64,000 nucleotides of DNA from Acidimicrobiales bacterium. GTDB taxonomy: Bacteria; Actinomycetota; Acidimicrobiia; Acidimicrobiales; VFJN01. The notes under the pieces are model-generated. The model had not been told where the DNA came from. It searched no databases and was given only the letters and a program-made list of their open reading frames with translations. Position 1 is the first letter of the stretch; each line of letters begins with the position of its first letter. Positions 10,634-56,906 of the stretch are shown here, in pieces. The stretch spans positions 4,392-68,391 of the forward strand of contig JBBDWQ010000026.1 of assembly GCA_040902805.1 (NCBI GenBank), given 5' to 3'. Made by a program: the position numbers and the translations under genes.

Positions 10634-10652
10634 ATGTGACGACCCGTCAGAT
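10634..10652. promoter_or_regulatory. Operator family B (ATCTGAC-N5-GTCAGAT), copy 1
   Basis: ATGTGAC GACCC GTCAGAT in the 56-bp divergent promoter. Confidence 0.75.
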
Positions 10653-10671
10653 TCCCTCGTACGCTCGTCGC

Positions 10672-12042
10672 ATGACTCGTGGGATCCTCGGCGCCGCTGT
10701 CTACGTGCCCCACTGGCGCCTCGATCGCAGCACCATCGCCGCGGTGGCGGGCAACGGGGGGGGCATGGGCACCCGCGCCGTGGCCGGCTACGACGAGGAC
10801 ACCACCACGATGGGGGTCGAGGCGGCACGAGCGGTGCTCCATGGCAGCGCCATCGCACCCCACACGCTGTGGTTCTCCACAGTCGCGCCTGCCTACGCCG
10901 ACAAGACCAACGCCACCACGATTCACGCCGCCCTCCGACTCGGCGCCGACGTGGGCGCCTTCGACGCCAACGGGTCGGTGCGCTCGGCCATGGGCGCCCT
11001 TCACGCCGCCCTCGCTGGGCGCGGCACCCACCTCGTGGTGAGCGCCGACCTGCGGGCCGGCCTCGCCGGTGGTCCCGACGAGTCCACCTTCGGCGACGCC
11101 GCCGCCGCACTGGTGGTGGGGAGCGAAGACGACGGCCCAGTGCTGGCCGAGCTGATCGGCGGCGGATGGGCCACGGAGGAGTTCCTCGACCGTTGGCGCA
11201 CGCCCGGCGAGGCGCGGTCCAGGGTGTGGGAGGAGCGCTTCGGCGAGACCCGTTACGTGCCCCTCGGTCAAGCTGCTTGGGACGACGCGCTGAAGACCGG
11301 TGGGCTCGTGGCCGAGCAGGTCGACCAGGTGGTGGTGGCCGGCACCCACAGCCGCGCCAACGCGGCGCTGGCCAAGAAGCTCGGCGTTGGCGAACGCCTC
11401 GTCCCCGACCATCGCGACACGGTGGGCAACGTCGGTGCCGCCCAGCCCGCCGTTGGACTCACGGCTGGCTTGGAGGCATCCCGGCCGGGCCAGGTGATCG
11501 CCCTGGTGGTGTTGGCCGACGGCGCCCACGTGCAGCTCTTCCGCACCACCGACGCGCTCGCGTCTTGGGCGCCCGCCGCGACCGTCGCCGACCAGGCTGG
11601 CGGGGGTGCCCCGATCCCGTACGGCACGTATCTGCGTTGGCGCGGCGTCCTTCCTGCCGAGCCGCCCCGCCGCCCCGAGCCAGCCCGCACGTCGGCCTCC
11701 GCCTCGGCCCGCTCGACCGAGTGGAAGCTCGGCTTCGTCGGCTCGGCTGACGACGACGGCGAGATCCACCTCCCACCCCAGCCCCTCGACGCCACCGCCG
11801 TGCCCATGGCCGATGCCACGGGCACGATCGTCACCTTCACGGTGGACCGTCTCGCGTACTCGCCGAGCCCGCCCGTGGTGTTTGCCGTGGTGGACTTCGA
11901 CCGTGGAGGCCGTCTGCCGGTGGAGCTCACCGACCTCGACGTCGACCAGGTGCGCATCGGTGCCCGCGTGGCGCTCACGTTCCGCAAGCTGTTCACGAGC
12001 GACGGGATCCACAACTACTTCTGGAAGGCGAGACTGGTCTGA
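10672..12042 (+). CDS. HMG-CoA-synthase-like + DUF35 OB-fold fusion protein
   Basis: YVPHWRL, DEDTTTMGVEAAR, GDAAAA, GNVGAA; C-terminal VTFTVDRLAYSPSPP...VELTD...NYFWK OB-fold. Confidence 0.85.
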   Translation: MTRGILGAAVYVPHWRLDRSTIAAVAGNGGGMGTRAVAGYDEDTTTMGVEAARAVLHGSAIAPHTLWFSTVAPAYADKTNATTIHAALRLGADVGAFDANGSVRSAMGALHAALAGRGTHLVVSADLRAGLAGGPDESTFGDAAAALVVGSEDDGPVLAELIGGGWATEEFLDRWRTPGEARSRVWEERFGETRYVPLGQAAWDDALKTGGLVAEQVDQVVVAGTHSRANAALAKKLGVGERLVPDHRDTVGNVGAAQPAVGLTAGLEASRPGQVIALVVLADGAHVQLFRTTDALASWAPAATVADQAGGGAPIPYGTYLRWRGVLPAEPPRRPEPARTSASASARSTEWKLGFVGSADDDGEIHLPPQPLDATAVPMADATGTIVTFTVDRLAYSPSPPVVFAVVDFDRGGRLPVELTDLDVDQVRIGARVALTFRKLFTSDGIHNYFWKARLV

Positions 12043-13241
12043 TGGGCTCACACGGGATCAAGGACCGGGTGGCGATTGTGGGCATGGGCTGTACACGTTT
12101 CGCCGAGCACTGGGACAAGGGGCTCGATGACCTGCTCCTCGACGCCACTGGCGAGGCGTTCGCCAGCGCGGGGGTGACAAAGGAAGAGGTCGACGCCTAC
12201 TGGCTCGGCACGGCCCAAGGCGGCATGTCGGGGATGCTGCTCGCCAAGCCGCTGCAGCTCGAAGGCAAGCCCGTTACGCGCGTCGAGAACATGTGCGCCA
12301 CCGGATCCGAAGCGCTGCGACAGGCCGCGTACGCGGTCGCATCGGGCGCGTACGACCTTGCGATGGCCGTGGGTGTGGAGAAGGTGAAGGACTCGGGCTA
12401 CCAAGGGCTCAATGCGTTCCCTGTCCCAAGTGACGGCACCCAGCGCACCTTGACCGCGGCCGCGATGTTCTCGATGGTCGCACCCGCCTACGCGGAACGC
12501 TACGGAGTCCCCATGGCGGACCTGAAGGCCACGCTTGCTCGCATCGCATCGAAGAACCACTACAACGGCGCTCGGAACCCGAGGGCACAGTTCCGGCGTG
12601 AGATGTCGGTGGAGCAGATTGTCGCCATGCCCGACGTCGCCGGCTGCTTGTCGGTGTTCGACTGTGCGGGCGTGGCCGACGGGGCCGCGGCGGCCATTGT
12701 GTGCCGAGCCGAGGACGCCCACCGGTACACCGACAACCCGCTGTACGTGAAGGCCCTGAGCTTCGTGGCTGGAAACGGGTCAGGGCTCACCGACCCGTCC
12801 TACGACTACACCACGTTCCCCGAGATTGCCGCCTGCGCGGCTGATGCGTACGCACAGGCTGGGATCACCGACCCCCGCACCGAGCTGGCCATGGCTGAGG
12901 TGCATGACTGCTTCACGCCCACTGAGCTCGTACTCATGGAAGACCTTGGCTTCTGCGAGCGGGGTACCGCCTGGAAGGAGATCAACGCAGGAGCCTTTGA
13001 TCTCACCGGTGACCTGCCGGTGAATCCCGACGGGGGACTCAAGAGCTTTGGCCACCCGGTGGGGGCGTCCGGGCTTCGGATGTTCTTCGAAGCCTGGTTG
13101 CAGCTACGCAACGAGGCGCCCGCCGAGCGTCAGATCGCCACGACCACCGACCGTCATCTCGCTCTCACCCACAACCTGGGCGGCTACCCGGGCGAGATGG
13201 TGAGCTTCGTGGGCATCGTTGGCACGGAGCTGGCCAACTAG
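12042..13241 (+). CDS. SCP2-type thiolase / acetyl-CoA acetyltransferase (PhlC/BbsB-like)
   Basis: ENMCATGS, HDCF, GHPVGASG; TGATG coupling to upstream gene. Confidence 0.9.
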   Translation: MGSHGIKDRVAIVGMGCTRFAEHWDKGLDDLLLDATGEAFASAGVTKEEVDAYWLGTAQGGMSGMLLAKPLQLEGKPVTRVENMCATGSEALRQAAYAVASGAYDLAMAVGVEKVKDSGYQGLNAFPVPSDGTQRTLTAAAMFSMVAPAYAERYGVPMADLKATLARIASKNHYNGARNPRAQFRREMSVEQIVAMPDVAGCLSVFDCAGVADGAAAAIVCRAEDAHRYTDNPLYVKALSFVAGNGSGLTDPSYDYTTFPEIAACAADAYAQAGITDPRTELAMAEVHDCFTPTELVLMEDLGFCERGTAWKEINAGAFDLTGDLPVNPDGGLKSFGHPVGASGLRMFFEAWLQLRNEAPAERQIATTTDRHLALTHNLGGYPGEMVSFVGIVGTELAN

Positions 13242-13258
13242 CCGTACGCTCCCGGCCC

Positions 13259-19853: not shown

Positions 19854-21119
19854 TTAGGTCAGCCCCAGCATGCGGCGGGCGTTGCCGCGCATGATCTTCT
19901 CGACCGCATCCGTTGGCACGGTGCGCATCAGCTCGATGGCGACTGCTTTGGTGTTCGGCCACGTCGAGTCGGTGTGGGGGTAGTCGGTCTCGAAGGTGAT
20001 GTTGTCGACACCCACCTTGTCGATGGCGTCGATCCCGTGCTGGTCGCGGAAGAAGCAGCCGTAGATCTGGCGGTAGTAGTAGGTCGACGGCGGCTCGGGC
20101 ACCAGGTCGGCTACCTCACCCCAGGCACGATGCTCGCTCCACACCGTGTCGGCGCGCTCGAGGATGTAGGGGATCCATCCGATCTGGCCCTCGCTGTAGG
20201 CCAGCTTCACCTCCGGGAACTGCACGAGCTTGCCCGAGAAGAGCCAGTCGCTCATCGACGCCATCGCGTTGTTGAAGCTGAGCGTGGCGGCGACAGCGAT
20301 GGGGGCGTCGCCGGAGGTGGCGGGCATGCGTGATGACGAGCCGATGTGCATGCAGATCACCGTTTGCGTGTCCTCACATGCGGCGATGAACGGGTCCCAT
20401 TCGCCGGAGTGGATCGACGGTAGGCCGAGGTGGGGCGGGATCTCGCTGAAGCACACCGCACGGGCGCCGCGCTCAGCGTTGCGCACGACCTCCTTGGCGG
20501 CCAGTGTCGCGTCCCACAGCGGGATGATCGGAAGTGGCAGGAGCTGGCCATCGGAGTCACCACACCACTCCTCGACCATCCAGTCGTTGTAGGCGTAGAC
20601 GCACGCTTCGCCGAGCTCGCGGTCCTTGGCTTCGGTGAAGGTCTGACCACAGAAGCGTGGAAACGACGGGAAGCACAGGGATGCCTCGACATGGTTCATC
20701 ATCATGTCCTCGACACGGGCCTTGGGGTCGTAGCAACCCGGGCGCATCTCGTCGTAGGTGATGGGAGAGGCGGTCATGTCGTCGCGGTCGAAGCCCACTG
20801 CCGCGACGTGGCGCTTGTTGATGTAGACGAGGTCCTCGAACACCCAGCAGTCGGCCTGGGGGCCATCAGGATCGAAGGTCTGCTCGTACTGGCCGCCGCC
20901 CGTGTGGCGCATGTGGCCGATGCCGCGCCGCTCCACCTTCGGACCGCGATCACGGAGGCGCTCGGGCAGCCACGTGTCCCAGACGTGCGGCGGCTCGACG
21001 ACGTGGTCATCGACGCTCACGATCGTCGGCAGCTCCCAGCCGTCGGGGCGCTCGGCGGCGGTGCCGGTGGCGGCGGGTGTCGGGGCTGAGGGCGCCGAGT
21101 CGGTGACGGTCATGGGCAC
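19854..21119 (-). CDS. Amidohydrolase_2 family protein (paralog A)
   Basis: SVDDH, MHIGSSS, SEGQIGW, FETDYPH. Confidence 0.92.
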   Translation of the reverse strand: MPMTVTDSAPSAPTPAATGTAAERPDGWELPTIVSVDDHVVEPPHVWDTWLPERLRDRGPKVERRGIGHMRHTGGGQYEQTFDPDGPQADCWVFEDLVYINKRHVAAVGFDRDDMTASPITYDEMRPGCYDPKARVEDMMMNHVEASLCFPSFPRFCGQTFTEAKDRELGEACVYAYNDWMVEEWCGDSDGQLLPLPIIPLWDATLAAKEVVRNAERGARAVCFSEIPPHLGLPSIHSGEWDPFIAACEDTQTVICMHIGSSSRMPATSGDAPIAVAATLSFNNAMASMSDWLFSGKLVQFPEVKLAYSEGQIGWIPYILERADTVWSEHRAWGEVADLVPEPPSTYYYRQIYGCFFRDQHGIDAIDKVGVDNITFETDYPHTDSTWPNTKAVAIELMRTVPTDAVEKIMRGNARRMLGLT

Positions 21120-21134
21120 GGTCTCCAGATCGGG

Positions 21135-21153
21135 ATCTGACGGTGTGTCAGAT
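21135..21153. promoter_or_regulatory. Operator family B, copy 2 (perfect)
   Basis: ATCTGAC GGTGT GTCAGAT between divergent amidohydrolase and cysteine hydrolase-fadD-tetR operon. Confidence 0.85.
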
Positions 21154-21181
21154 TCTAGGCCAGGCCGGTAGTGTCAGCGCC

Positions 21182-21802
21182 ATGCCGCTGGATCTCACCG
21201 CGCTGCTGGACCCTGCCCACACAGCGGTCGTCACCTCCGAGGTGCAGAACGGCGTGGTGGGCGTGCCGTCGGCGCTTCCGGAGCTGGCCGCCGAAGCGGG
21301 GCGCGAGATGCTCCCGAACCTGGGTCGGCTCCTGCCGGTCGCCCGCGCCGCGGGGGTGCAGGTGGTCCACTGCACCGCCTACCGCCGCGCCGATGGCAAA
21401 GGCGCCAACGCGAACGCCCGCCTGTTCCGCGGTGTCCAGAAGTCGCCGGTGCCGTTGCTGCCGGGCACGGCCGCCGTCGAGGTGGCCGCCGAGCTCGGGC
21501 CGGAGCCGGACGACCTGGTACTTGCGCGCACGCACGGCCTCGACCCGATGACCGGCACCGACCTCGACCCCGTGCTTCGCAACCTTGGCGTGAGCACGAT
21601 CGTGGTCACCGGCGTCTCGGTGAACGTTGCCATCACCAATCTCGTGATGGATGCCGTGAACCGCGGCTACTCCGTGGTGCTGCCGCGTGATGCGGTCTGT
21701 GGCTTGCCGCGCGAGTACGCGGATGCCGTCATCGACAACACACTCGCGCTGCTCGCGGCGATCGTCACGACCGACGAGCTCATCGACATCTGGAAGGGCT
21801 GA
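21182..21802 (+). CDS. Isochorismatase/cysteine hydrolase family protein (degenerate triad)
   Basis: PAHTAVVTSEVQN, TDLDPVLRNLGVSTIVVTGVS, DAVNRGY. Confidence 0.85.
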   Translation: MPLDLTALLDPAHTAVVTSEVQNGVVGVPSALPELAAEAGREMLPNLGRLLPVARAAGVQVVHCTAYRRADGKGANANARLFRGVQKSPVPLLPGTAAVEVAAELGPEPDDLVLARTHGLDPMTGTDLDPVLRNLGVSTIVVTGVSVNVAITNLVMDAVNRGYSVVLPRDAVCGLPREYADAVIDNTLALLAAIVTTDELIDIWKG

Positions 21803-21807
21803 TCGCC

Positions 21808-23421
21808 ATGGGGGCGATGGAGACCGGCATCCGCGGGGATCTCGAGTGGGGCACCACTCCCGCGCTCCTGCGTTCGGCTGCCGATCGCTTTGGCGACGCC
21901 GAAGCCGTGGTGGACGGTGACGTGCGGCTGACCTTCAGCGCCCTTGCCGTTGAAGTCGACGCGGCCGGCCGAGCCTTCGTGGCTGCGGGCGTGGAGGCTG
22001 GGGACCGGGTGGCGATCTGGTCGCCGAACGTGTGGGAGTGGATCGTGGCACTGCTTGGCCTGCAGTCGGCCGGCGCGGTGGTGGTGCCGATCAACACTCG
22101 GTACAAGGGCGAGGAAGCGGCGTACATCCTGCGCAAGAGCCGGGCCCGCATCCTGGTGACCGTCGATGGGTTCCTTGGCAACGACTACGTCGCCATGCTC
22201 GACCGCCACGACCTGCCTGACCTCGAGCTCACGGTTGTGCTTCGCGGCGATGCACCCGCAGGGATCCGTACCTGGGCCGACTTCCTGGCCGATGGCGCCT
22301 CCGTGGATCAGGCCGAGATCGATGCCCGGGTGGCTTCCCTCGGTCCGGACGACGTCTCGGACATCCTGTTCACCTCGGGCACGACCGGGAACCCGAAAGG
22401 TGTGGTGGCGACCCACGGCCAGACCGTGCGGGGCTTCGCCGACTGGGCCGCCATCGTCGGCTTGCGGGCCGACGATCGCTATCTCGTCGTGAACCCGTTC
22501 TTCCACTCGTTCGGCTACAAGGCCGGGATCATCGCATCACTCACCGTTGGGGCGACGATCGTGCCGCAGGCCGTGTTCGACATCCCTATGGCGATGGCCA
22601 ACGTCGCCGAGCATCACATCACCGCACTGCCCGGGCCGCCGGCGATCTATCAGACGTTCCTCAACCATCCCGACCTCGACCGCGCCGCGATGCAGTCGCT
22701 CCGCCTCGCCGTCACTGGTGCTGCCCCCGTGCCGGTCGAGCTGATCAAGCGGATGGAGGACGAGCTCGGGTTCGAGACGGTCGTCACGGCCTACGGCCTC
22801 ACGGAGACCTGCGGCATCGTGAGCGTGTGCTGGCCCGACGACCCCCCCGAGCTGATCTCGGGCAGCTCAGGGCGGGCGATCCCAGGAGTTGAGGTGCGCG
22901 TTGTCGACGACGACGGCAACGACGTGTCCACCGGCGAAGCGGGCGAGATCATGGTGCGCGGCTACAACGTCATGCGCGAGTACTTCGAGGACCCGGAGCA
23001 AACGGCCGCCACCATCGACGTGGACGGCTGGCTGCACACCGGCGACGTCGGGACGATGGACGCGGACGGCTACCTGACCATCACCGACCGCAAGAAGGAC
23101 ATGTTCATCACTGGCGGGTTCAACGTCTATCCGGCCGAGGTGGAGCGCTTGCTCCTCACGCATCCAGCGATCGCGCAGGCGGCGTTGATCGGTGTCGACG
23201 ACGAGCGCATGGGTGAGGTGGGCTTGGCCTTTGTGGTGGCTGCTGTCGGGACGTCACTCGTTGCCGAGGATGTCATCGCCTGGGCGCGGGAGCACATGGC
23301 CAACTTCAAGATCCCGCGGCAGGTGCACTTGGTCGACGCGCTCCCGATGAATGCCAGCAACAAGGTGCTCAAGATCGAGCTGCGCGAGCTGGCTGCTCAG
23401 TACGATCGAACCCATGGCTGA
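21808..23421 (+). CDS. FadD3-like acyl-CoA synthetase
   Basis: FTSGTTGNPKG, NPFFHSFGYKAG, AYGLTE, HTGDVG. Confidence 0.9.
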   Translation: MGAMETGIRGDLEWGTTPALLRSAADRFGDAEAVVDGDVRLTFSALAVEVDAAGRAFVAAGVEAGDRVAIWSPNVWEWIVALLGLQSAGAVVVPINTRYKGEEAAYILRKSRARILVTVDGFLGNDYVAMLDRHDLPDLELTVVLRGDAPAGIRTWADFLADGASVDQAEIDARVASLGPDDVSDILFTSGTTGNPKGVVATHGQTVRGFADWAAIVGLRADDRYLVVNPFFHSFGYKAGIIASLTVGATIVPQAVFDIPMAMANVAEHHITALPGPPAIYQTFLNHPDLDRAAMQSLRLAVTGAAPVPVELIKRMEDELGFETVVTAYGLTETCGIVSVCWPDDPPELISGSSGRAIPGVEVRVVDDDGNDVSTGEAGEIMVRGYNVMREYFEDPEQTAATIDVDGWLHTGDVGTMDADGYLTITDRKKDMFITGGFNVYPAEVERLLLTHPAIAQAALIGVDDERMGEVGLAFVVAAVGTSLVAEDVIAWAREHMANFKIPRQVHLVDALPMNASNKVLKIELRELAAQYDRTHG

Positions 23422-24109
23422 CGTCACCCCTCTCCGCCGCGTCACCGGCGAGCCGGTCGCTGAGGAGGACGACCTGCGGGCCGCCGACGGCCGAGTTCCG
23501 GGTCGCCGCGGACGAGCCACGCGTCAGCGACTGCTCGAGTGCACCGGCGAGATGCTCGCCGTCACGTCCTACCGCGACGTGAAGGTCATCGACATCGCCC
23601 GCGAGGCGGGCACGTCCCCGGCGACGTTCTACCAGTACTTCGCGGACGTCGAAGCGGCCATCTTGGTACTGGCCGAGGAGATGGCACAGCAAGGGGCCCA
23701 TCTCACCGAGATCATCGCGGCGGGCTCGTGGGACGGCGATGATGCGGCCGCCACCGCACTTTCGCTCGTCGACGCGTTCCTGCGCTTCTGGGACGAGCAC
23801 CGCGCGGTGCTGCGGGTGATGGACCTCGCCACCGACGAAGGAGACGGTCGCTTTCAGAAGATCCGTGTCGGTCTGCTCAACGGCATCACGCGTGCCCTCG
23901 CTGAGGTGACGCGGTCCTCCCAGGTCGCCGGTCGGCTTCCGAAGGGCATCGACTCAATGGCGACGGCCGGGATCCTGGTGTCGATGCTGGCCCACGTCGC
24001 AGCCCACCAGTACGGATTCGAGTTCTGGGGCATCCGTACCGCAGACCTGCGGGCATCCATGGCCCGACAGGTGTCCTGGGGGGTCACCGGGGTCGTGCCT
24101 CGCGACTGA
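23414..24109 (+). CDS. TetR family transcriptional regulator
   Basis: ATRQRLL...VIDIAREAGTSPATFYQYF HTH; overlaps the upstream stop. Confidence 0.92.
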   Translation: MADVTPLRRVTGEPVAEEDDLRAADGRVPGRRGRATRQRLLECTGEMLAVTSYRDVKVIDIAREAGTSPATFYQYFADVEAAILVLAEEMAQQGAHLTEIIAAGSWDGDDAAATALSLVDAFLRFWDEHRAVLRVMDLATDEGDGRFQKIRVGLLNGITRALAEVTRSSQVAGRLPKGIDSMATAGILVSMLAHVAAHQYGFEFWGIRTADLRASMARQVSWGVTGVVPRD

Positions 24110-24137
24110 CCGGCGCCGAGTCCACCACAATGGTGGG

Positions 24138-24629
24138 ATGACGGATGTCAACGAGACCAATCTGCCCGGCGTCGGACTGCGGCACGAGTTCGTGTGCGCC
24201 AGCGGTGATCGCATCGGTCTGATCACCCGACACTCAGGTCGTCGTGAGCTGCTGGTGCTGGACAAGGACGACCCTGACTACGTGAGCGAGTCGGTCGCCA
24301 TGACGCCGGTCGAGGCGCGGGTGCTGGCCGATCTACTGGGAGGCTCGACGTTGGCCGAGCGCTTCGACGACCTTCGCCAGCACATCGCTGGGTTGTCGAT
24401 CGACTGGTTGCCGGTGTCGCCTCGAAGTCGGTTCGTGGGGTCGGCGTTGGGAGCGACCGAGATGCGCACCAGGACCGGTGTGTCGGTGATCGCCATCTTG
24501 CGCGCTGGGTCGCCGATCCCGGCTCCGGGACCCGATGACGTTCTGCGCGCCGACGACACCGTGGTGGTGGTGGGCTTGGCCGAGGGCATTGACGCCGCTG
24601 CCCGCCTTCTGGCTGAGCCTGACGCGTGA
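24138..24629 (+). CDS. khtT: K+/H+ antiporter regulatory subunit (KhtT-like, RCK_C)
   Basis: ETNLPGVG, C-terminal TrkA-C (RTRTGVSVIAILR...PGPD). Confidence 0.85.
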   Translation: MTDVNETNLPGVGLRHEFVCASGDRIGLITRHSGRRELLVLDKDDPDYVSESVAMTPVEARVLADLLGGSTLAERFDDLRQHIAGLSIDWLPVSPRSRFVGSALGATEMRTRTGVSVIAILRAGSPIPAPGPDDVLRADDTVVVVGLAEGIDAAARLLAEPDA

Positions 24630-26646: not shown

Positions 26647-26664
26647 GCTAGAACGCGTTCTAGT
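26647..26664. promoter_or_regulatory. KstR-type operator, copy 1
   Basis: GCTAGAACGCGTTCTAGT fits TnnAACnnGTTnnA; lies between divergent eamA and LLM genes. Confidence 0.85.
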
Positions 26665-34132: not shown

Positions 34133-35362
34133 CTACTTGGTGATGCCGAGGCGGTCGAGGCCGAAGGCGCGGATGGCATTGCCGCGCATGAACTTCCACG
34201 TCTCCTCGGTGGAGAGCCCCGCTTTTGTGCAGATGCTGGTGGCTACTTCCTTGGAGTGCGGGAAGGTGCTGTCCGCGTGGGGGTAGTCGGTCTCGAAGCA
34301 GATCTGGTCCATGCCGATGAGATCGCGGTTCTGCAGGCCGATCTCGTCGTCGAACACGCAGCCGTAGATGCGGTGGTGGATGTAGCTCGACGGGGGGTTG
34401 GGCAGGCTCGTGCCGAAGGCGTTGTCACTGCGCTCGGCCCAGAGCTTGTCGGCCCGTTCGATCACGTAGGGCATCCAGCCGACCTGGCCTTCGCTGTAGG
34501 CGATCACGAGGTTGGGGAAGCGCTCCATCGTGCCGGAGAAGATGTAGTCGAGCATCGATCCCATGGCGTTGGAGAACGTCAGCGTCGAGCTCACGATGAA
34601 GGGTGCGTCGGGTGACGTGGCGGGCATCTTGGAGGATGACCCGATGTGCATGCACACGACCGTGCCGGTGTCCTCGCAGGCATGGAAGAACGGATCCCAG
34701 TAGCGGCTCTTGTCGTGGATCGATGGCATGCCCAGAGGATGCGGGTTCTCGGAGAAGGTGACGGCGAAGCAGCCACGAGCGGCGTTGCGGCGCACTTCCT
34801 CGGCCGCGAGCTGCGGATCCCAGAGCGGCACCATGCCGAGCGGGATGAGGCGACCCTTGCCATCGCCAGCGCACCACTCATCGATCATCCAGTCGTTGTA
34901 GGCCTGGACGCACAGCAGCGCGAGGTCCTTGTCCTCGCGCTCGTAGAACGCCTGCCCGCAGAAGCGGGGAAGCGTGTTGGGGAAGCAGATCGATGCCTCG
35001 ACATGGTTGGCCGTCATGTCCTCGAGGCGGTCCTTCTGGATCCAGCAGCCGGGCCGGATCTCGTCAAACGTGACGGGGGTGACGTCGAGGTCGTCGAAGC
35101 CGAGTGCGGCGGAGAGCTTGGGGAATGGGTAGACGAGGTCGTCGTAGAGCCACCAATCGCACATCTCGCCATCGGGCGTGCCCTTCTCGTAGGAGAAGAT
35201 GCCGCCCTCGAAGCTGAACGTGGCGGTGTCGCGGACCACCCGAGGGCCTCGGTCGAGGTACTTCTTCGGGAGCCGATCGCTCCACAGCGTTGGGGGTTCC
35301 ACCACGTGATCGTCGACCGAGATGATGAGCGGGATCTCCGGCGCGGGGGCGGTGTCGGGCAT
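34133..35362 (-). CDS. Amidohydrolase_2 family protein (paralog B)
   Basis: SVDDH, MHIGSSS, FETDYPH; leaderless TAGTAT-7nt-ATG. Confidence 0.92.
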   Translation of the reverse strand: MPDTAPAPEIPLIISVDDHVVEPPTLWSDRLPKKYLDRGPRVVRDTATFSFEGGIFSYEKGTPDGEMCDWWLYDDLVYPFPKLSAALGFDDLDVTPVTFDEIRPGCWIQKDRLEDMTANHVEASICFPNTLPRFCGQAFYEREDKDLALLCVQAYNDWMIDEWCAGDGKGRLIPLGMVPLWDPQLAAEEVRRNAARGCFAVTFSENPHPLGMPSIHDKSRYWDPFFHACEDTGTVVCMHIGSSSKMPATSPDAPFIVSSTLTFSNAMGSMLDYIFSGTMERFPNLVIAYSEGQVGWMPYVIERADKLWAERSDNAFGTSLPNPPSSYIHHRIYGCVFDDEIGLQNRDLIGMDQICFETDYPHADSTFPHSKEVATSICTKAGLSTEETWKFMRGNAIRAFGLDRLGITK

Positions 35363-35371
35363 GCGGCCGAT

Positions 35372-35389
35372 ACTAGAACGTGTTCTAGT
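35372..35389. promoter_or_regulatory. KstR-type operator, copy 2
   Basis: ACTAGAACGTGTTCTAGT overlapping the -10 of amidohydrolase B. Confidence 0.88.
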
Positions 35390-49276: not shown

Positions 49277-50332
49277 ATGACGACCGTCCCGTTCGCTCCC
49301 GAGGCGATCACTGCGGCGTGGCTCAGCGAGTCCGTCGACGCCAAGGTCCGCAGCTTCGAGATGGAGCAGATCGGCATCGGCGTCGGGCTTCTCGGTCGGC
49401 TGTACCGGATCGTGCTCGATGCCGATGGCGGTCCCGAATCCGTCGTCGCCAAGTTTCCGACGCTGGACGCTGGGGCTAGGAGCAATGTCGTCGAACCCCT
49501 GAACTTCTACGAGAAGGAGGTGGCGTTCTATCGGGAGGCGAGCTCCAAGACGCCGATCCGCACGCCGGGTATGTACGCCGCCGAGTTCGACGAGGAGACC
49601 GGCGACTTCGTCCTGCTCATCGAGGACCTCAACGGCATGCGCGTCGAGGACCAGACCGCCGGTGCCAGTGTGGCCGCCGCCGAGTCCGTGGTGGACATGA
49701 TCGCGGGTCATCATCTCGCCTTCTGGGGCGTCGACACGCTCGATCAGTTCCCGTGGCTCCCCGACGTCACCGAGCCGCCGTTTCCGCAGATCATCGCCGG
49801 GATGGTTGCTCAGTCGCTTCCGAGGTTCGCGGCAGCGTTCGACAGCACGCTCGACACCGACATCCGCGAGTTCATCCACGCGCTGCCGGACACGCTGCTC
49901 GCGTACTTCGAGCTCCCGGTCGAGAGCGAGCTGACCTACGCCCACGGCGACGTTCGGCTCGACAACGTGTTCTTCCCCGAGGTCGGCGAGCCCTACCTGA
50001 TCGACTGGCAGATCGGTACCCGCACCACCGGCGCGTACGACTTGGCGTACTTCGTGAGCCAATCGCTCAGCACGGAGACCCGGCGGGCGAACGAGCAGCG
50101 GCTGCGCGACCGCTATCTCGCCAAGCTCGCGTCGGGAGGTGTCACGTATGACCAAGACGTGTTCGACCTTGCCTATCGCCAGACCGTCGCCTTCTGCATT
50201 GTGTACCCCGTGAGCTCGGCTGGTCAGATCGAGCTGGAGAACGACCGAGCCCGCGAGCTCGTCGCCGGCATGCTCGGCCGGTGCGTCGCCGCGATCCGCG
50301 ACAACGACGCGCTCGCCGTCTGGCCGTCATAG
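49277..50332 (+). CDS. APH/EcKinase-like phosphotransferase (paralog 2)
   Basis: EVAFY, LIEDL, HGDVRLDN, IDWQ. Confidence 0.88.
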   Translation: MTTVPFAPEAITAAWLSESVDAKVRSFEMEQIGIGVGLLGRLYRIVLDADGGPESVVAKFPTLDAGARSNVVEPLNFYEKEVAFYREASSKTPIRTPGMYAAEFDEETGDFVLLIEDLNGMRVEDQTAGASVAAAESVVDMIAGHHLAFWGVDTLDQFPWLPDVTEPPFPQIIAGMVAQSLPRFAAAFDSTLDTDIREFIHALPDTLLAYFELPVESELTYAHGDVRLDNVFFPEVGEPYLIDWQIGTRTTGAYDLAYFVSQSLSTETRRANEQRLRDRYLAKLASGGVTYDQDVFDLAYRQTVAFCIVYPVSSAGQIELENDRARELVAGMLGRCVAAIRDNDALAVWPS

Positions 50333-50356
50333 TCGTCTGGCCGTCATAGTCGTCTG
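50317..50356. repeat. 17-bp tandem duplication spanning the stop codon
   Basis: CGTCTGGCCGTCATAGT x2 + CGTCTG. Confidence 0.85.
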
Positions 50357-50366: not shown

Positions 50367-50385
50367 ATCTGACGGGTCGTCAGGT
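50367..50385. promoter_or_regulatory. Operator family B, copy 3
   Basis: ATCTGAC GGGTC GTCAGGT upstream of the acyl-CoA ligase. Confidence 0.8.
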
Positions 50386-50405: not shown

Positions 50406-51956
50406 ATGCCGAACGTGGATGGTGGGAGCCTCTGGGAGCTCGTCGAGCGCCGCGCGGCGGCGACGCCCGATGCACTGGCCGCCGTCGATGAGGACGGACG
50501 CACGCTGACCTGGGCGGAGGCCAAGACGCAAGCAGAGCAAGCCGCCGCGGGACTGACTCGCCTCGGCATCGGTCCGGGCGACGTCGTGTCGTGGCAGCTG
50601 CCCACATGGCTCGAGTCGAAGCTGCTCGTGCTGGCGCTGGCCCGACTCGGCGCGATCCAGAACCCGATGCTTCACATCTACCGCGAGCGCGAGGTCGGCT
50701 TCGTCGTGCGGCAAGCCAAGAGCAAGCTCCTCGTGGTGCCGTCCACGTGGGGCGGGTTCGACTTCGAGGCCATGGCGCGGGGCATCGCGACCCAGGTCGA
50801 GGCCGAAGGCGGCAAGCTGCAGGTGCTCGTCGCAGACAAGACGCTGCCGCAGGGCGACCCCTCGACGCTGCCCCCGCCGCCGGATCCCAGTGAGGACATG
50901 ATTCGCTGGTACTTCTACACGTCCGGCACGACTGCGGATCCCAAGGGTGCGCAGCACACCGACCGCACGATCCTGGCCAGCGCCCTCGGCATGAACGAGT
51001 GCCTCGCGGTCACTTCCGAAGACAAGAACGCTGTGGTGTTCCCCTTCACCCACATCGGCGGCATCGGTTGGCTGTTCTCCGCCCTCGCCGTCGGGTTCGC
51101 CACCGTGTACATCGAGCGCTTCGACCCGGCCCGCACCACTGCGCTCATCAAGGAGCACGACGTGACGATGGCGGGCGCGGGCACGCCGTTCCACATGGCA
51201 TACCTCGCCGCGCAGCGCGCCCTTCCCGCTGGGGAGGTGCTGTTCCCGAACGTGCGGGTGTACTGCGGTGGTGGCGCACCGAAGCCGCCACAGCTCCACT
51301 ACGACATCAAGGCCGAGATGGGCGGGGTCGGCGTGGTGTCGGGCTACGGCCTCACCGAGGCGCCGATCATCGCGATGGGCACGGTCCACGACACCGACGA
51401 ACAGCTCGCCAACACCGAAGGCAAGGCCACCAGCGGCGTGCAGCTGCGGGCCGTCACGCTCGAGGGCAAGGAAGCTGGCATCGGCGAGGAAGGCGAGATC
51501 CGAGCCAAGGCCCCCCAGCTCATGAAGGGCTACCTCGACTCCTCGCTAGACGGCGAGGCCTTCGACGACGACGGCTGGTTCGGTACTGGCGACCTCGGTC
51601 GCATCGATGCCGAGGGCATGGTCACCATCACCGGTCGGGTGAAGGACATCATCATCCGCAACATGGAGAACGTCTCGGCCAAGGAGGTCGAGGACGTCCT
51701 CTTCCGCAGCCCCGACGTGGCCGACGCCGCGGTGATCGGTGTCCCCGATCCGAAGACCGGTGAGCGCGTGTGCGCGGTCGTCGTTCCCGCTGATTCGGCC
51801 AACCCGATCACGTTCGAGGCCATGGTCGCCTGGTGCAAGGCCGAAGGCTTGATGACCCAGAAGCTCCCCGAGCGCCTGGAGATCGTCGATGCGCTTCCCC
51901 GTAATCCCACCGGCAAGGTCCTCAAGTTCGAGCTGCGAGACCGCTTCGGCGGTTGA
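50406..51956 (+). CDS. Acyl-CoA ligase (cyclohexanecarboxylate-CoA ligase-like)
   Basis: YTSGTTADPKG, GYGLTE, TGDLG, NPTGKV. Confidence 0.9.
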   Translation: MPNVDGGSLWELVERRAAATPDALAAVDEDGRTLTWAEAKTQAEQAAAGLTRLGIGPGDVVSWQLPTWLESKLLVLALARLGAIQNPMLHIYREREVGFVVRQAKSKLLVVPSTWGGFDFEAMARGIATQVEAEGGKLQVLVADKTLPQGDPSTLPPPPDPSEDMIRWYFYTSGTTADPKGAQHTDRTILASALGMNECLAVTSEDKNAVVFPFTHIGGIGWLFSALAVGFATVYIERFDPARTTALIKEHDVTMAGAGTPFHMAYLAAQRALPAGEVLFPNVRVYCGGGAPKPPQLHYDIKAEMGGVGVVSGYGLTEAPIIAMGTVHDTDEQLANTEGKATSGVQLRAVTLEGKEAGIGEEGEIRAKAPQLMKGYLDSSLDGEAFDDDGWFGTGDLGRIDAEGMVTITGRVKDIIIRNMENVSAKEVEDVLFRSPDVADAAVIGVPDPKTGERVCAVVVPADSANPITFEAMVAWCKAEGLMTQKLPERLEIVDALPRNPTGKVLKFELRDRFGG

Positions 51957-51987: not shown

Positions 51988-52902
51988 ATGGCACTCCTCA
52001 CTGACAAGGTCGCGATCGTCACGGGCGCTGGGCACGGCATCGGCCGCGCCCACGCCCTCGAGCTCGCCAAGCACGGCGCCAGCGTGGTGGTCAACGACCT
52101 CGGCACCTCGGTCACTGGCGACGGGTCCGACCAGAAGGCCGCTGATCTGACCGTCGCGCTGATCACCGAGCGCGGCGGCGCGGCCGTCGCCAACTACGAC
52201 GATGTGTCCGACTACGAAGGCGCCGGTCGCATGGTCGCACTGGCGGTCGACACCTACGGCAAGCTCGATGTGCTCGTGAACAACGCTGGCATCGTGCGCG
52301 ACACGGCCATCTGGAACATGTCGGAGGCCGACTTCGATTCGGTCATCAAGGTGCACCTGAAGGGTTCATGGGCGCCCGCCCACCACGCGGCGCGCCACTG
52401 GCGCGACCGAGCCAAGACGGGTGAGGTCTTCACTGGCCGCGTGATCAACACCACCTCGGGTGCAGGACTCGTCGGCAACTTCGGGCAGACCAACTACGCC
52501 ACCGCCAAGGCCGGCATCGCCGGGTTCACCCAGACGCTGTCGCTCGAGCTGCACAAGCTGGGCGTCACCGTCAATGCCGTCGGTCCCGCGGCGGCCACCC
52601 GCATCACCGGCACCATGCCCGGCGCCCCCGCCGTCATCGAGGCCGACGAGGTGCCGGACGACGAGTGGAACCGGATGGATCCGGCGGTGTCGTCGCCGCT
52701 CGTGGCCTGGCTCGCCAGCGACGAGAGCCAGCACATCACCGGTCAGGTGATTCGCGCCGTCGCGGAGGACATCGTCTGGATGCAGGGTTGGAGCGAGGGA
52801 GCCAAGATCTCCAACGGCGCCAAGCGCTGGGATGCCACCAAGCTCGGTCAGCAGCTCGCCACCGACGTCTTCAAGACCCGCGCCCCCGGCCTCCGGTACT
52901 AG
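51988..52902 (+). CDS. SDR (17beta-HSD4 / 3-hydroxyacyl-CoA dehydrogenase-like)
   Basis: TGAGHGIG, VVVNDLG, NNAGI, GNFGQTNYATAK. Confidence 0.92.
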   Translation: MALLTDKVAIVTGAGHGIGRAHALELAKHGASVVVNDLGTSVTGDGSDQKAADLTVALITERGGAAVANYDDVSDYEGAGRMVALAVDTYGKLDVLVNNAGIVRDTAIWNMSEADFDSVIKVHLKGSWAPAHHAARHWRDRAKTGEVFTGRVINTTSGAGLVGNFGQTNYATAKAGIAGFTQTLSLELHKLGVTVNAVGPAAATRITGTMPGAPAVIEADEVPDDEWNRMDPAVSSPLVAWLASDESQHITGQVIRAVAEDIVWMQGWSEGAKISNGAKRWDATKLGQQLATDVFKTRAPGLRY

Positions 52903-52915
52903 GGATACCCCCAGC

Positions 52916-52976
52916 AACCAACGTCTGTGAACACCCACGTCCGCATACCGGTGAAAACGCTTCACAGACGTTGGTT
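52916..52976. repeat. ~62-bp palindromic intergenic repeat, copy 2
   Basis: AACCAACGTCTGTGAA...TTCACAGACGTTGGTT, 16-bp perfect inverted repeat. Confidence 0.85.
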
Positions 52977-52979
52977 GGT

Positions 52980-53726
52980 ATGGCTGGGTTAGGGGTCCTT
53001 GTGGGGCCTGGGGTGGTTCGTGACGGCTGCGTTGACGGGGTGCGGGCCTTTGCGGCGCGGGTCGGCTGCGGGGTGGTCAACACGTGGGGGGCCAAGGGGG
53101 TGTTCCGTTGGGATGACCCGTTGCACTTCGGCACTGCAGGTCTGCAGGCGCTCGACTTCGAGCTGGCCGGGTTGGGTGACGTCGACGTGCTGGTGACGAG
53201 TGGACTCGATCCGAACGAGGTGACGTCGCAGCCGTGGCTCGGCCGCGCCGCCGTGATCGACGTGGCGCCGGCCGACCTGGCCACGGTCGAGCTGGACCTG
53301 CCGCCCGGCACCATTGAGCGACCACGGCTCTACACCGATCTGGCCGCGGTGGTGGGCCCGATGTACGAGCAGGCGGGCTCGGCGGCGGGGCGGGCGGCAG
53401 CGCTGGCCGCGGCGCTCCCGAAGGACGGGGTGGTCGTGGCCGAACCTGGGTTGGTGGGCTTCTGGATCGCTCGGACCTTCCCGACGGCGGTTCCGGGCAG
53501 CGTGGTCGTGCCGGCCAGCGGTGGCGCTCCGGCGGCCCACCACGCGGCCAAGGAGCTGGCGGCGACGGGCCATGAGGTGGTGCTGGTCGCCGCGGCGCCG
53601 CCACCGATCGACTTGCACGGCGACCTGCACGGGATCCGCGTCGAGGTCTGGCGAGCGGACGCGGTCGACCTCGACCCGAGCCCGCTGGTGGCGATCGCCG
53701 GGGCGATCGTGGCGTGGGCCAGCTAG
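52980..53726 (+). CDS. TPP-enzyme central-domain-like protein lacking the N-terminal domain
   Basis: LVGPGV...VVNTWGAKGVF.WDDPLHFG...DVLVTSGLDP.E resembles the acetolactate synthase middle domain. Confidence 0.6.
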   Translation: MAGLGVLVGPGVVRDGCVDGVRAFAARVGCGVVNTWGAKGVFRWDDPLHFGTAGLQALDFELAGLGDVDVLVTSGLDPNEVTSQPWLGRAAVIDVAPADLATVELDLPPGTIERPRLYTDLAAVVGPMYEQAGSAAGRAAALAAALPKDGVVVAEPGLVGFWIARTFPTAVPGSVVVPASGGAPAAHHAAKELAATGHEVVLVAAAPPPIDLHGDLHGIRVEVWRADAVDLDPSPLVAIAGAIVAWAS

Positions 53727-53757
53727 CGCCAGCCGAAGCAGCTAGCGCCAGCCGAAG
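53720..53757. repeat. 19-bp tandem duplication between convergent stops
   Basis: CAGCTAGCGCCAGCCGAAG x2. Confidence 0.85.
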
Positions 53758-54362
53758 GAGCGGGTGCAGGCGGGCCAGTGACGCCAGCCGCCCTGGGCGT
53801 GGAGGCGCTTGCCCATCTCGATCTGCGTCTCGCGGCTCGCCTCGTGCGGGTAGCCGGTGCCACCCACTCCCCGCCAGGAGCTCAGCGAGAACTGGATGCC
53901 GCCGTAGTAGCCGTTGCCGGTGTTGATGGCCCAGTTGCCGCCTGACTCGCACTGGGCGAGCCGGTCCCAGCTGGCTGGGTCGTTGGGGTCACCGGCACGG
54001 GCCTGGGCGGGGGCAGGGGCAGGGGTTGGCGGAGCCGGGGCGACGGGGGTGGGGGTAGCGGGAGCGACCGTTGTGGCGGGTGGGGGCACGGTGGTCGTGG
54101 TGGGAGCGACGGTCGTGGTGGCGTCGATGTCGGCGGGGGTCGCAACGGAGTCGGAGGCGGCGACGATTCGGTCGGAGCTGCGCTCGGCGCTGGCCTGTTG
54201 CGCAGGGGCCTCGTCGGCGGTGGCGTTGTTGGCGAACGCTGCGATGGCGACCACGAGGACGACGGGTAGGGCCACGGCCAGGACGGCTGCGGCGCTCGTC
54301 GTGACGGCCCGTCGTGCGATGCACGGCGAGCCGTTCGTACTCGGGGGGTTGCTCCCAGACAT
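53742..54362 (-). CDS. rpf: Resuscitation-promoting factor (Rpf transglycosylase)
   Basis: WDRLAQCESGGNWAINTGNGYYGGIQF...WPAC; TM + Pro/Thr/Ala linker; AAGGAG RBS. Confidence 0.93.
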   Translation of the reverse strand: MSGSNPPSTNGSPCIARRAVTTSAAAVLAVALPVVLVVAIAAFANNATADEAPAQQASAERSSDRIVAASDSVATPADIDATTTVAPTTTTVPPPATTVAPATPTPVAPAPPTPAPAPAQARAGDPNDPASWDRLAQCESGGNWAINTGNGYYGGIQFSLSSWRGVGGTGYPHEASRETQIEMGKRLHAQGGWRHWPACTRSFGWR

Positions 54363-54519
54363 GTGGGGGGTGCTCCTTGGGGGGAGGGGCCGGGGCGCGC
54401 GTCGATTGGGAAGGGAAGATCGACGGATCACTGCGCCCCAGCGGCGGGCCGCGCATCGGGCGGCTGGTGAGTTACGAAATGGTAACCTGAACTCGACACG
54501 AGAATGCAACATTCAGTCG

Positions 54520-54535
54520 TGTGATTTACGCCACA
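54520..54535. promoter_or_regulatory. Putative CRP/GlxR site upstream of rpf
   Basis: TGTGA-TTTACG-CCACA vs TGTGA-N6-TCACA (1 mismatch). Confidence 0.55.
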
Positions 54536-54647
54536 GCCCCTGTTTCTGACTCAGCGTCAGCTATCGGGTGTCAAATTGGCGGCCGCAAATCCCCAAGATC
54601 TGGGGTCTCAGCCCCGTTGGGCCGCCCCCGACCACTCTTCGTGGTGT

Positions 54648-56867
54648 TCAGCGACTTCGGGGCAGACCCAGACCGCGGCCGGCAATGATCTCCCGTTGGA
54701 CCTCACTCGACCCGCCGTAGATGGTTGTGACGACAGCGTGTCGGAAGGCGTGCTCCACCAGTCCGCCGAGCGGTTCGCCGGTCGTGCCCCCGCCGAGAAG
54801 GCCCGCGGTGCCGAGGAGATCGACGAGGTCGCTGGAGGCCTTCACGAAGGCCTCGGTGATGTGGAGCTTGGCCATCGACCCCTCCACCTGGGGCATCTGG
54901 CCCTGCGCGGACAGCCACGCGGAGCGGAGCAGCAGGAGACGACCAACTTCGAGCTCGGTGCTCCAACGGGCCAGCGTGGCCCGGACGATCGGGTCGTCGA
55001 ACGGCCGGGCCCCATGGGCATCCGGCTGCACCGCCCACGCCGCCATCGCCTCCACCAGCGCGTCGGGCTCCCCCCAGTTGGCGGAGTTGCGCTCGTAGAC
55101 CAGCGCCGCATGCATGACCGACCATCCGGCGTCGACCTCGCCGACGCGGCAGGAATCGTGCACCCGCACGTCGCCGTAGAAGGTGATGTTGGTGCGCTCG
55201 CCACCCATCGTGGCGACGGGGTTGACCTCGATGCCCGGTGTGTCCATCGGCACGAGGAACATGGTCAGGCCCTTGTGCTTGGGGGCATCGAGGTTGGTGC
55301 GGCACAGGAGGAAGACGTAGTGCGCCTCGTGCGCCATCGTCGTGAACATCTTCTGCCCGTTGATCACCCAGTCCTCGCCATCTCGCACGGCGCGGGTGGC
55401 CACGGCGGCGACATCTGACCCAGCATCGGGTTCGCTGTAGCCAAGGCAGCACATGACCTCGCCAGCGAGGATGCGTGGGAGCACATCCGCCTTCTGCGCG
55501 TCGGTCCCACACACCAGGAGGGTGGAGCCGACCATCGAGACGATGTTCAGACCGTCGATCGGCGCTCCCGACGCGTAGAGCTCCTGCATGAGCAGCGTCT
55601 GGTCGATGGCGTCACGCCCGAGGCCGCCGAACTCCCGGGGCCAGCCCGAGGCCAGGTAGCCGCGCTCGCAGAGCGCCCGGTGGAAGCCCCAATCGTGCAT
55701 GGTGCCCGTCACATGCGCCCGCTCGACGATCTCGGGAGTGAGGTGCTCAACGATGAAGGCCCGCACCTCGGCGCGGAAGGCCTCCGTCTCGGCGTCGAAC
55801 CGGAAGTCCATGCCCGGTCGGGTCGGGCGCGCCGTTCGCGCCGCCACGACCACCAACGGATCGGGGGCGGCGTCACCCCAGCGGCGGTCGGCGACGACAT
55901 CGAGCTCACGACGGGGATCGCCGAGCAGCAGACGGGTGGCTTTCGCCCGACGGACGTGGAGCTGCACGTCGTACTCGACCATGAAGCCGTACCCGCCGTG
56001 CACGTGCAGGCTGAACGCGGCCGCTTCGTCGGCCACCATCCCGCAGTACCACGACGCTTGCGCGGCAAGCATCGGTGCGGTGGGCTCGCCCTCGTCGAGG
56101 GCCCAGATCGCCTCGTAGGCGAGGAGTCGGGCTCCCTCGACGCGTTCGTGCAGGTCGGCGAAGCGGTGCTGGATCGTCTGGAAGCTGGCGATCGGCACGC
56201 CGAACTGGTGGCGGTCGAGCGCGTACTGCACGCCGAGATCCAGGGTGGCTCGCGCCAGCCCCGCCTGGGCTACCGCCGTGAGGGCGCGCCACTCGTCGAG
56301 GGCGCGATCGAATCGGCTTATGGCCTCAGCTCCGATGGCGAGGGTGTCGCCGCCGTCGCGGCCAACTGGGGCGATGGCCAGTCCGGCCAGGGTCGATCGC
56401 AGCGGTCCCCGACGTTCGGTCATGCAGACGAGGTGATCGCCGTCCAGGGCAAGGATCCTGGTGGCAACGGCGGCGAACGCGGTGGGCGTGGTGGTGTCCC
56501 CGGTGGCGAGACGCAGGGTGGTCGGCTGTCCCGTGACGATGGAGGCAAGGGCCGACTCGGCCGGGACGCCGGGAAGGCGCGCGACGAGTCGGGCCGCCAC
56601 CGCCGTCTCCACCAGGGGGACCAGCCCGCAGTGGGCACCGTGCACTTCGACCGCGACGGCGAGGTCGGTGAGCGAGGCGCCAGCGCCGCCGATGGCCTCG
56701 GGAAGCGCCATCGCCGGAAGGCCCATCTCCACCACTGCGACCCACAGCGCCGGATCGAAGCCTGCTGACTCGAGCTCCCGCACCCGTTCGCCATGGGATT
56801 CCTTGGCGTAGAGCCGGAGCGCCGCGTCTCGCAGCGCCTCTTGATCAGGGGTGAAGGAGAGGTCCAT
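54648..56867 (-). CDS. Fused double-domain acyl-CoA dehydrogenase (FadE34-like architecture)
   Basis: Two ACAD units (MDLSFT..RHQFG..HGGYG; MDFRF..YSEPDAGSD..NGQKMFT..TIYGGSSEVQR). Confidence 0.92.
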   Translation of the reverse strand: MDLSFTPDQEALRDAALRLYAKESHGERVRELESAGFDPALWVAVVEMGLPAMALPEAIGGAGASLTDLAVAVEVHGAHCGLVPLVETAVAARLVARLPGVPAESALASIVTGQPTTLRLATGDTTTPTAFAAVATRILALDGDHLVCMTERRGPLRSTLAGLAIAPVGRDGGDTLAIGAEAISRFDRALDEWRALTAVAQAGLARATLDLGVQYALDRHQFGVPIASFQTIQHRFADLHERVEGARLLAYEAIWALDEGEPTAPMLAAQASWYCGMVADEAAAFSLHVHGGYGFMVEYDVQLHVRRAKATRLLLGDPRRELDVVADRRWGDAAPDPLVVVAARTARPTRPGMDFRFDAETEAFRAEVRAFIVEHLTPEIVERAHVTGTMHDWGFHRALCERGYLASGWPREFGGLGRDAIDQTLLMQELYASGAPIDGLNIVSMVGSTLLVCGTDAQKADVLPRILAGEVMCCLGYSEPDAGSDVAAVATRAVRDGEDWVINGQKMFTTMAHEAHYVFLLCRTNLDAPKHKGLTMFLVPMDTPGIEVNPVATMGGERTNITFYGDVRVHDSCRVGEVDAGWSVMHAALVYERNSANWGEPDALVEAMAAWAVQPDAHGARPFDDPIVRATLARWSTELEVGRLLLLRSAWLSAQGQMPQVEGSMAKLHITEAFVKASSDLVDLLGTAGLLGGGTTGEPLGGLVEHAFRHAVVTTIYGGSSEVQREIIAGRGLGLPRSR

Positions 56868-56885
56868 GCGGTCCTGTCGCGCTCA

Positions 56886-56906
56886 TATCTGACGGGTCGT
56901 CAGATA
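56886..56906. promoter_or_regulatory. Operator family B, copy 4 (perfect)
   Basis: TATCTGAC GGGTC GTCAGATA in divergent promoter. Confidence 0.85.

Follow-up and report, generated by a model that had tools for sequence, protein, structure and literature searches.

A palindromic box at steroid C/D-ring catabolism operons of Acidimicrobiales, and a likely TetR-family regulator distinct from KstR2

In Mycobacterium and Rhodococcus, genes for the breakdown of the steroid C/D rings, i.e., the HIP pathway, are controlled by KstR2 (Rv3557c), a TetR-family regulator with a palindromic 14-bp box, AnCAAGnnCTTGnT; passages of PMC3068626 and PMC5380842 place one such site in the Rv3549c-Rv3550 gap, that is, between the divergent Rv3549c and echA20, and describe KstR2 as regulating itself by way of its own operon. 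The KstR2 regulon as given in passages of PMC5380842 includes Rv3549c, echA20, ipdA, ipdB, ipdC, fadE31, fadE32, fadA6 and Rv3548c, with FadD3 as the enzyme that makes HIP-CoA (CoA, coenzyme A), the KstR2 inducer. A further TetR repressor of steroid catabolism, KstR (Rv3574), has a box of its own, TnnAACnnGTTnnA (passages of PMC1995591), and still other, unnamed motifs are reported in PMC7807495. Described here is a palindromic box, ATCTGAC-N5-GTCAGAT, found in a 64,000-nucleotide stretch of an Acidimicrobiales bacterium (assembly GCA_040902805.1, contig JBBDWQ010000026.1, positions 4,392 to 68,391), a stretch that as a whole is called here the window. Probably this palindrome is the operator of a TetR-family protein whose gene begins at window position 23414 (hence ‘23414 TetR’) and which, in place of KstR2, would repress HIP genes together with accessory CoA-ester genes.

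In the window the pattern is matched at 10634, 21135, 50367, 54544 and 56887, with 1, 0, 1, 2 and 0 mismatches respectively, and these are the same copies that an earlier note on this DNA had listed, save that it placed the weakest of them at 54545. At up to three mismatches the window holds nine matches, versus a mean of 2.1 and a maximum of six over 100 shuffles, and the source genome (2.56 Mb, 61 contigs, 82% complete, 67.5% guanine plus cytosine, GC) holds 15 copies at up to two mismatches. A scoring matrix built from 45 sites of other genomes, with own-genome and TetR-negative loci excluded, widens the consensus to 19 bp, ATCTGACG-N3-CGTCAGAT. At 16 bits or more that matrix identifies 13 sites in the source genome, every one of them intergenic by the gene calls made in this analysis, under which intergenic DNA makes up just 7.8% of the total; with the matrix reversed, the same threshold yields none. 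Box centres lie mostly 27-38 bp from a start codon. All five window copies are intergenic by the same gene calls, and three are found in short divergent gaps of 56 bp (10615/10672), 68 bp (21113/21182) and 61 bp (56867/56929), just as the note had described. The copies are as follows:

10634..10652: box copy of 27.9 bits; its divergent gap separates a class III CoA-transferase gene from one for an HMG-CoA-synthase-like/OB-fold fusion followed by a thiolase; 5/5 same-genus genomes
21135..21153: box copy of 32.8 bits, with the cysteine hydrolase-FadD3-family ligase-TetR operon on one side of its divergent gap and a dinuclear-oxygenase-like gene on the other
50367..50385: box copy, 26.0 bits, its centre 30 bp upstream of an operon of an acyl-CoA ligase and a short-chain dehydrogenase/reductase (SDR); 4/4 same-genus genomes
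54544..54562: weak and doubtful box copy, 20.2 bits, beyond the 3' end of a fused acyl-CoA dehydrogenase gene, its centre located 278 bp upstream from the gene for an Rpf-like transglycosylase
56887..56905: box copy of 32.4 bits; its divergent gap separates the fused acyl-CoA dehydrogenase gene from a gene without known family that is followed by a class III CoA-transferase gene; 4/4 same-genus genomes

Each of the four same-genus genomes in which the four strong sites are all covered (G029, G019, G027 and G006) has them at the same genes, and a fifth, G007, covers the first two strong sites only. As the 54544 site recurs in just one of four same-genus genomes, that copy is doubtful. The palindromic box family nevertheless is real, and it is a second operator family as the note had held, the first being that of the KstR box. 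Immediately upstream of the 50367 box (window 50324-50355) there is, in addition, a 17-bp stretch in tandem duplicate. No account of the box or its regulon, or of how steroid catabolism is regulated in Acidimicrobiia, was found in the open-access literature, a search whose scope stopped short of RegPrecise, figures, supplements and subscription papers, and the operator-regulator pair apparently is undescribed.

At its core the regulon comprises the known pathway for breakdown of the steroid C/D rings (HIP). This core lies outside of the window, particularly on contig C51 of the source genome, where boxes are found as follows:

C51:68224: box between a PRK07856 SDR gene and a PRK07938 hydratase gene, the latter followed by a CoA-transferase pair
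C51:61196: box heading a FabK-like reductase, two acyl-CoA dehydrogenases and a PRK07801 thiolase
C51:40863: box heading a PRK07791 SDR

The CoA-transferase pair of the first of these matches solved IpdA (E 1.5e-105) and IpdB (E 1e-74) and, with steroid gene names assigned from cluster order along with family models, genes at the C51 boxes correspond to Rv3549c, echA20, ipdA, ipdB, ipdC, fadE31, fadE32, fadA6 and Rv3548c. When the KstR2 cluster of another genome, G196, which carries three exact KstR2 boxes, is used for comparison, 10 of its 13 enzymes have their best local matches in box-bearing operons of the source genome, and the window ligase at 21808..23421 is the best local match of the G196 FadD3 (52% identity). 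Clear matches to fadE30, ipdF and fadE33 were not found in the source genome, an 82%-complete assembly; fadE30-ipdF is found under the box in G053, G045 and G043. The earlier note's idea of a CoA-ester catabolic regulon thus is supported by the box-headed operons, but not its suggestion that the regulon outlines an uncharacterised pathway, as it is solely the box-linked accessory genes of the window that are uncharacterised.

This association of box with pathway extends to relatives, of which 61 genomes were examined. Among them echA20 is found in 42. With a duplicated row and a locus that has no echA20 set aside, and G015 left out, 39 distinct loci remain, and at 35 of these the box lies no more than 200 bp upstream of echA20, as it does also in G033 and G053. 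Loci lacking a strong box within that distance are those of G014 (10.9 bits), G044, G034 and G058. A KstR2 box is found at none of the 39. In G034 (loci L192 and L213) neither box is present at echA20-ipdAB, an AT-rich stretch being found in place, which possibly represents a further swap of regulator.

Absence of KstR2 from these same relatives was assessed using a KstR2 query from a Streptomyces-like genome, G344, that was itself checked against solved KstR2 (E 4e-59). No KstR2 orthologue was found among the 61 relatives, matches there being of 26-38% identity (best E 5e-38), versus a yardstick for true KstR2 of 46-92% identity and E values of 2e-56 or better. Nor are KstR2 boxes in evidence in the source genome, which has zero exact copies of AnCAAGnnCTTGnT and, of a relaxed form, six copies, none of them intergenic. 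The 23414 TetR is just 25% identical to the verified KstR2 of G344, and this protein is not a KstR2 orthologue. Rejected as binders of the new box are KstR2 and KstR, as the box fits neither motif, there is no KstR2 orthologue, and KstR boxes are present separately.

Promoters of echA20 allow the two systems to be compared more directly. In a phylum sample of 301 genomes, echA20 occurs in 34, and 29 loci were examined for their promoters. All 12 genomes with KstR2 have an exact AnCAAnnnnTTGnT box there (AnCAAnnnnTTGnT being the KstR2 pattern as relaxed after the Streptomyces form had been seen) and none has the new box. Among the 17 genomes without KstR2, by contrast, none has a AnCAAnnnnTTGnT box at echA20, and the new box stands within 200 bp in 10 and approximately 800-830 bp upstream in four. 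The new box and the KstR2 box, that is, are mutually exclusive at echA20. The systems otherwise resemble each other in being TetR-based, in the placing of a palindromic box between the divergent Rv3549c and echA20, in self-regulation, here a predicted one, by way of the regulator's own operon, and in targets held in common, i.e., EchA20, IpdA, IpdB, IpdC, FadA6, FadD3, FadE31/32 and Rv3548c/49c. They differ in that the 23414 TetR is not an orthologue of KstR2, having instead a TetR_C_38 domain and an EthR-like fold, in box length and sequence (19 bp, ATCTGACG-N3-CGTCAGAT, versus 14 bp), and in that the targets of the new box are scattered and include as well CoA-transferases, a dinuclear oxygenase and further ligases.

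That the 23414 TetR is the likely cognate regulator of the box, as the note had proposed, is suggested by their co-occurrence together with box copies upstream of orthologues. Counting as strict those copies with at most one mismatch, at least three strict boxes are found in 39 of the 44 relatives that possess an orthologue of this TetR versus in none of the 17 that do not, with a reversed pattern giving zero throughout; one of the 44, G004, is unpublished, and without it the former count is 38/43. In the phylum sample, for which the protein search scored only nine candidates per genome, at least three boxes occur in 25 of 29 genomes with the TetR versus 1 of 272 without. As sampled genomes are kin, no weight is placed on a P value for this co-occurrence. 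The 21135 box, furthermore, heads the operon that encodes the 23414 TetR, and across 59 orthologue loci a site of at least 8 bits lies within 300 bp upstream of the TetR gene at 21 and within 1.6 kb at 26, versus none with reversed, gene-body or downstream controls. A second set of 80 loci, which may overlap with the first, has an 8-bit site over the start codon in 37 of 40 Streptomyces; of the 40 others, 32 have an upstream site, either at no more than 300 bp or, for sites of 12 bits, at up to 3.5 kb, versus 6 of 40 downstream; the reversed control gives 0/80. When 30 of the 32 TetR genes of the source genome were compared, the 23414 TetR alone had a match of at least 50% in all three distant site-rich genomes. 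Its recognition-helix segment, SPATFYQYF, is nearly invariant across orthologues.

Several further observations concern this family. At loci L353 and L375 the new box lies in the gap between the TetR gene and a KstR-like gene that is transcribed divergently from it. Four genomes (G092, G164, G252 and G318) have two TetR paralogues each, at 39-50% identity, and a plasmid search found TetR paralogues only, at 35-49%. Boxes of G035 (L204) read GTCTGAC..GTCAGAC, which is why the strict count for that genome is zero.

As a protein, the 23414 TetR is modelled with a pLDDT (predicted local distance difference test) of 90.5 as nine helices matching TetR folds, and it has an N-terminal helix-turn-helix and a helical ligand-binding domain. 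No close solved structure was found, with the nearest solved fold being that of EthR (Rv3855), at a template-modelling (TM) score of 0.72 and 20% identity, and EthR is also the best profile hit (E 2e-10). EthR nonetheless is a distant homologue, and its operator is described, in passages of PMC4482099, as large and non-classical. Arginines 134 and 151 are invariant within the 23414 TetR family and arginine 146 nearly so, and a guess is that these bind CoA phosphates. By analogy with KstR2, sensing of a CoA thioester is plausible, though a side-chain ester or a free acid could equally serve as the ligand.

Mechanistically, a TetR dimer would very likely bind two ATCTGACG half-sites across the promoter, with the 23414 TetR, in good likelihood, repressing both its targets and its own operon, and with up to two divergent operons controlled per site. 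The box half-site resembles, and may overlap, a -35 hexamer, such that a bound dimer would block transcription. The inducer would be a pathway intermediate, and tentatively this is HIP-CoA or a related C/D-ring CoA ester supplied by the upstream ligase. The side chain and the A/B rings would fall to KstR, as they do in mycobacteria, and some promoters would answer to both regulators. The predicted system thereby remains a one-component TetR switch. It would imply, though, that actinobacterial steroid breakdown does not follow the KstR/KstR2 scheme everywhere, one regulator having been swapped for another on the same promoter, and the 19-bp box would provide a marker of steroid-ring catabolism in uncultured Acidimicrobiia, as well as pointing to co-regulated accessory enzymes, i.e., the dinuclear oxygenase, the CoA-transferases and the HMG-CoA-synthase-like fusion.

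Orthologues of the 23414 TetR are found also in nine large Streptomyces-like genomes, one each, at 52-54% identity and with the same recognition helix. In G344 the gene faces kbpA, adjoins afsK and is near afsR (AfsK, KbpA and AfsR models all above cut-off), and afsK neighbours the orthologue at 39 of 40 named Streptomyces loci. As afsK is SCO4423 or SAV3816 (passages of PMC3878966 and PMC5640586), the position of the orthologue is that of SCO4421/SAV3818, and the orthologue likely is that protein, an identification made from gene order rather than from direct comparison of sequences. AtrA is rejected for this role, as the orthologue faces kbpA and not the NADH dehydrogenase gene that AtrA faces (passages of PMC3511530). 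In the same passages on afsK, SCO4421 has sporulation-linked expression but no phenotype upon deletion, and SAV3818 stimulates avermectin, with the mechanism unexplained.

Likeness of the window's regulator to SCO4421/SAV3818 consists of 52-56% identity, an identical recognition helix, and a shared box, of which seven of the nine genomes have 8-16 copies, those seven being exactly the ones with echA20. The other two have 0-1 boxes and are without echA20, KstR2 and the afsR-afsK catabolic genes, though the TetR and its start-codon site are retained; in G322 a few weaker sites are retained nearby. A difference is that in Streptomyces this regulator coexists with KstR2, and published passages on it give no operator or regulon. 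Because echA20-ipdAB of G344 keeps a KstR2-type box, and because KstR-like genes (with KstR boxes) are present there too, the Streptomyces orthologue is a third regulator rather than a KstR2 replacement. In G344 the new box instead heads the sole above-cut-off FadD3-family ligase, along with an Ltp-type thiolase that has an OB-fold partner, EchA19-like, PRK07798 and oxygenase-like genes, and others. One such box (L115:13649-13667) lies in the divergent gap between an oxygenase-like gene and afsR, which is a possible route to effects on antibiotic output.

A more speculative and indeed doubtful extension is that Actinomycetota have, in the SCO4421/SAV3818 group, a third repressor of steroid catabolism. 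Within Acidimicrobiia this group would have taken over the whole C/D-ring regulon from KstR2, with an unrelated, EthR-like pocket sensing a HIP-type CoA ester, and in Streptomyces it would gate the FadD3 entry step beside kbpA-afsK-afsR. If true, such gating would explain why extra SAV3818 alters antibiotic yield. A testable operator and regulon are supplied for a Streptomyces regulator that has a published phenotype but no target in the papers seen.

A number of observations weigh against the 23414 TetR as a KstR2-replacing repressor of HIP genes. With regard to targets, a FadD3 paralogue on contig C39 of the source genome (51%) has no box, three phylum-sample genomes without KstR2 (G136, G318 and G252) have neither box at echA20, and in Streptomyces the KstR2-type box stands over echA20-ipdAB with the new box elsewhere, so HIP ring opening is not the universal target of the regulator. 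With regard to the regulator, the 23414 TetR has no site directly upstream, its operon-head site being 2.3 kb away, the Streptomyces self-site is of 8 bits only and overlaps the start codon, and SAV3818 is called a positive regulator of avermectin output (in passages of PMC3742746), which is not evidence of repression. In G034, where both the TetR and echA20-ipdAB are present, echA20-ipdAB lacks the box and the whole genome has a single strict copy, and G036 has the TetR but neither boxes nor echA20. Kinship of the genomes means, too, that TetR, box and echA20 are inherited together. A possible though less favoured alternative keeps the same regulator and box but assigns them a broader lipid or CoA-ester role, with a side-chain CoA ester, free acid or terpenoid sensed and with control of HIP in Acidimicrobiales being a later capture. 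Streptomyces boxes do head Ltp-type thiolase/OB-fold, EchA19-like, PRK07798 ligase, oxygenase, LLM and ADP-forming ligase genes rather than ipdAB, the nearest fold is EthR rather than KstR2, and the oxygenase neighbour resembles diterpenoid hydroxylases. Nevertheless, it is exactly the Streptomyces-like genomes with echA20 that are box-rich, and it is the sole above-cut-off FadD3-family ligase of G344 that bears a box.

It is improbable, by contrast, that some other co-inherited regulator, whether not a TetR or a TetR missing from the 82%-complete assembly, binds the box, with the 23414 TetR a mere member of the regulon. G043 and G282, which have boxes without a clear TetR orthologue (best E 4e-15 and 5.5e-22), fit with such a regulator and count also against the 23414 TetR, as does the coverage of the regulator screen, which was of the TetR family only, i.e., 30 of 32 in the source genome against three genomes. 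The box is found directly upstream of the TetR gene in unrelated gene contexts, however, the self-site has been retained in two Streptomyces-like genomes even though the catabolic genes beside it are gone, and TetR and box co-occur across classes. At least as improbable is that the palindrome is not a repressor operator at all but instead two back-to-back -35 hexamers (CTGACG resembling TTGACA) or an activator site. The half-site does resemble a -35 element, start codons do cluster approximately 30 bp from the centre of the box, and TANNNT occurs 17-18 bp beyond the box at 10634 and at C12:26021. Full palindromes nonetheless are seen also at one-way promoters (50367 and C12:26021), absence from 271 of 272 genomes without one TetR is not how a general promoter element would behave, and overlap with a -35 is consistent with repression. 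TANNNT at the right spacing is found on only about 10 of 90 oriented sides, so a pure promoter element is weakly supported. A sigma-70 scan of 21000-24300 returned no promoters and no terminators, a result that is uninformative at this GC content. A search of RNA runs gave no RNA holder.

The KstR box, as noted, represents a separate family, occurring 21 times in the source genome with 12 of these copies intergenic. The new box does not fit the KstR motif, and the KstR-family gene is a different gene:

26649..26662: exact KstR box, of a separate regulon; further exact copies at 35374, 37540 and 41928
C12:21329-21916, outside the window: KstR-family gene, TetR_C_20

Twice in the source genome a KstR box lies within 20 bp of a new box (C12:18296/18310 and C12:39996/40016), and in G344 the two are likewise side by side (C1:2330552/2330626), which suggests two-input control of these promoters.

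Genes beside the boxes of the window are as follows:

9356..10615, minus strand: class III CoA-transferase (CaiB family)
10672..12042, plus strand: HMG-CoA-synthase-like domain fused to a ChsH2-type OB-fold
12042..13241, plus strand: thiolase, PRK06157 family above cut-off
19854..21113, minus strand: ‘amidohydrolase A’, with a DitZ/PtmU3-like dinuclear oxygenase signature (D-x-H at 35, D-Y-P-H-T-D at 377)
21182..21802, plus strand: cysteine hydrolase of the isochorismatase family; no other gene neighbours the TetR gene as often (31/40 non-Streptomyces loci)
21808..23421, plus strand: FadD3-family acyl-CoA ligase, candidate HIP-CoA synthetase, NF005801 above cut-off
23414..24109, plus strand: TetR-family regulator, likely cognate repressor, TetR_N + TetR_C_38 (PF00440 + PF19352)
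50406..51956, plus strand: acyl-CoA ligase, nearest model cyclohexanecarboxylate-CoA ligase, below cut-off
51988..52902, plus strand: SDR, nearest model PRK07791, below cut-off
54648..56867, minus strand: fused two-module acyl-CoA dehydrogenase
56929..57606, plus strand: conserved gene, 225 aa, no family match
57603..58826, plus strand: second class III CoA-transferase

The labels that the earlier note gave to these neighbours mostly hold against Pfam and NCBIfam, except that a NIPSNAP-like gene is without support and that ‘amidohydrolase A’ has instead the dinuclear-oxygenase signature. The latter protein is nearest to DitZ (E 6e-55) and PtmU3, and bears both of the motifs, an N-terminal D-x-H and a C-terminal D-x-P-H-x-D/E, that define amidohydrolase-related dinuclear oxygenases in passages of PMC13154177, so that, judged from these features, hydroxylase activity is more probable for it than hydrolase activity. 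The 56929-57606 gene, with no Pfam or PDB match, is found in three of four same-genus relatives but not at that place in G029. Elsewhere in the source genome (C39:76504-79560) there is a fusion of approximately 1,020 aa, without a box, of a FadD3-family ligase and a second ligase-like module. The full dinuclear-oxygenase signature is seen as well in ‘amidohydrolases’ at window 34133-35362 and at L115:12371-13630, and of the two window oxygenase-like genes one is under the new box and the other is under a KstR box.

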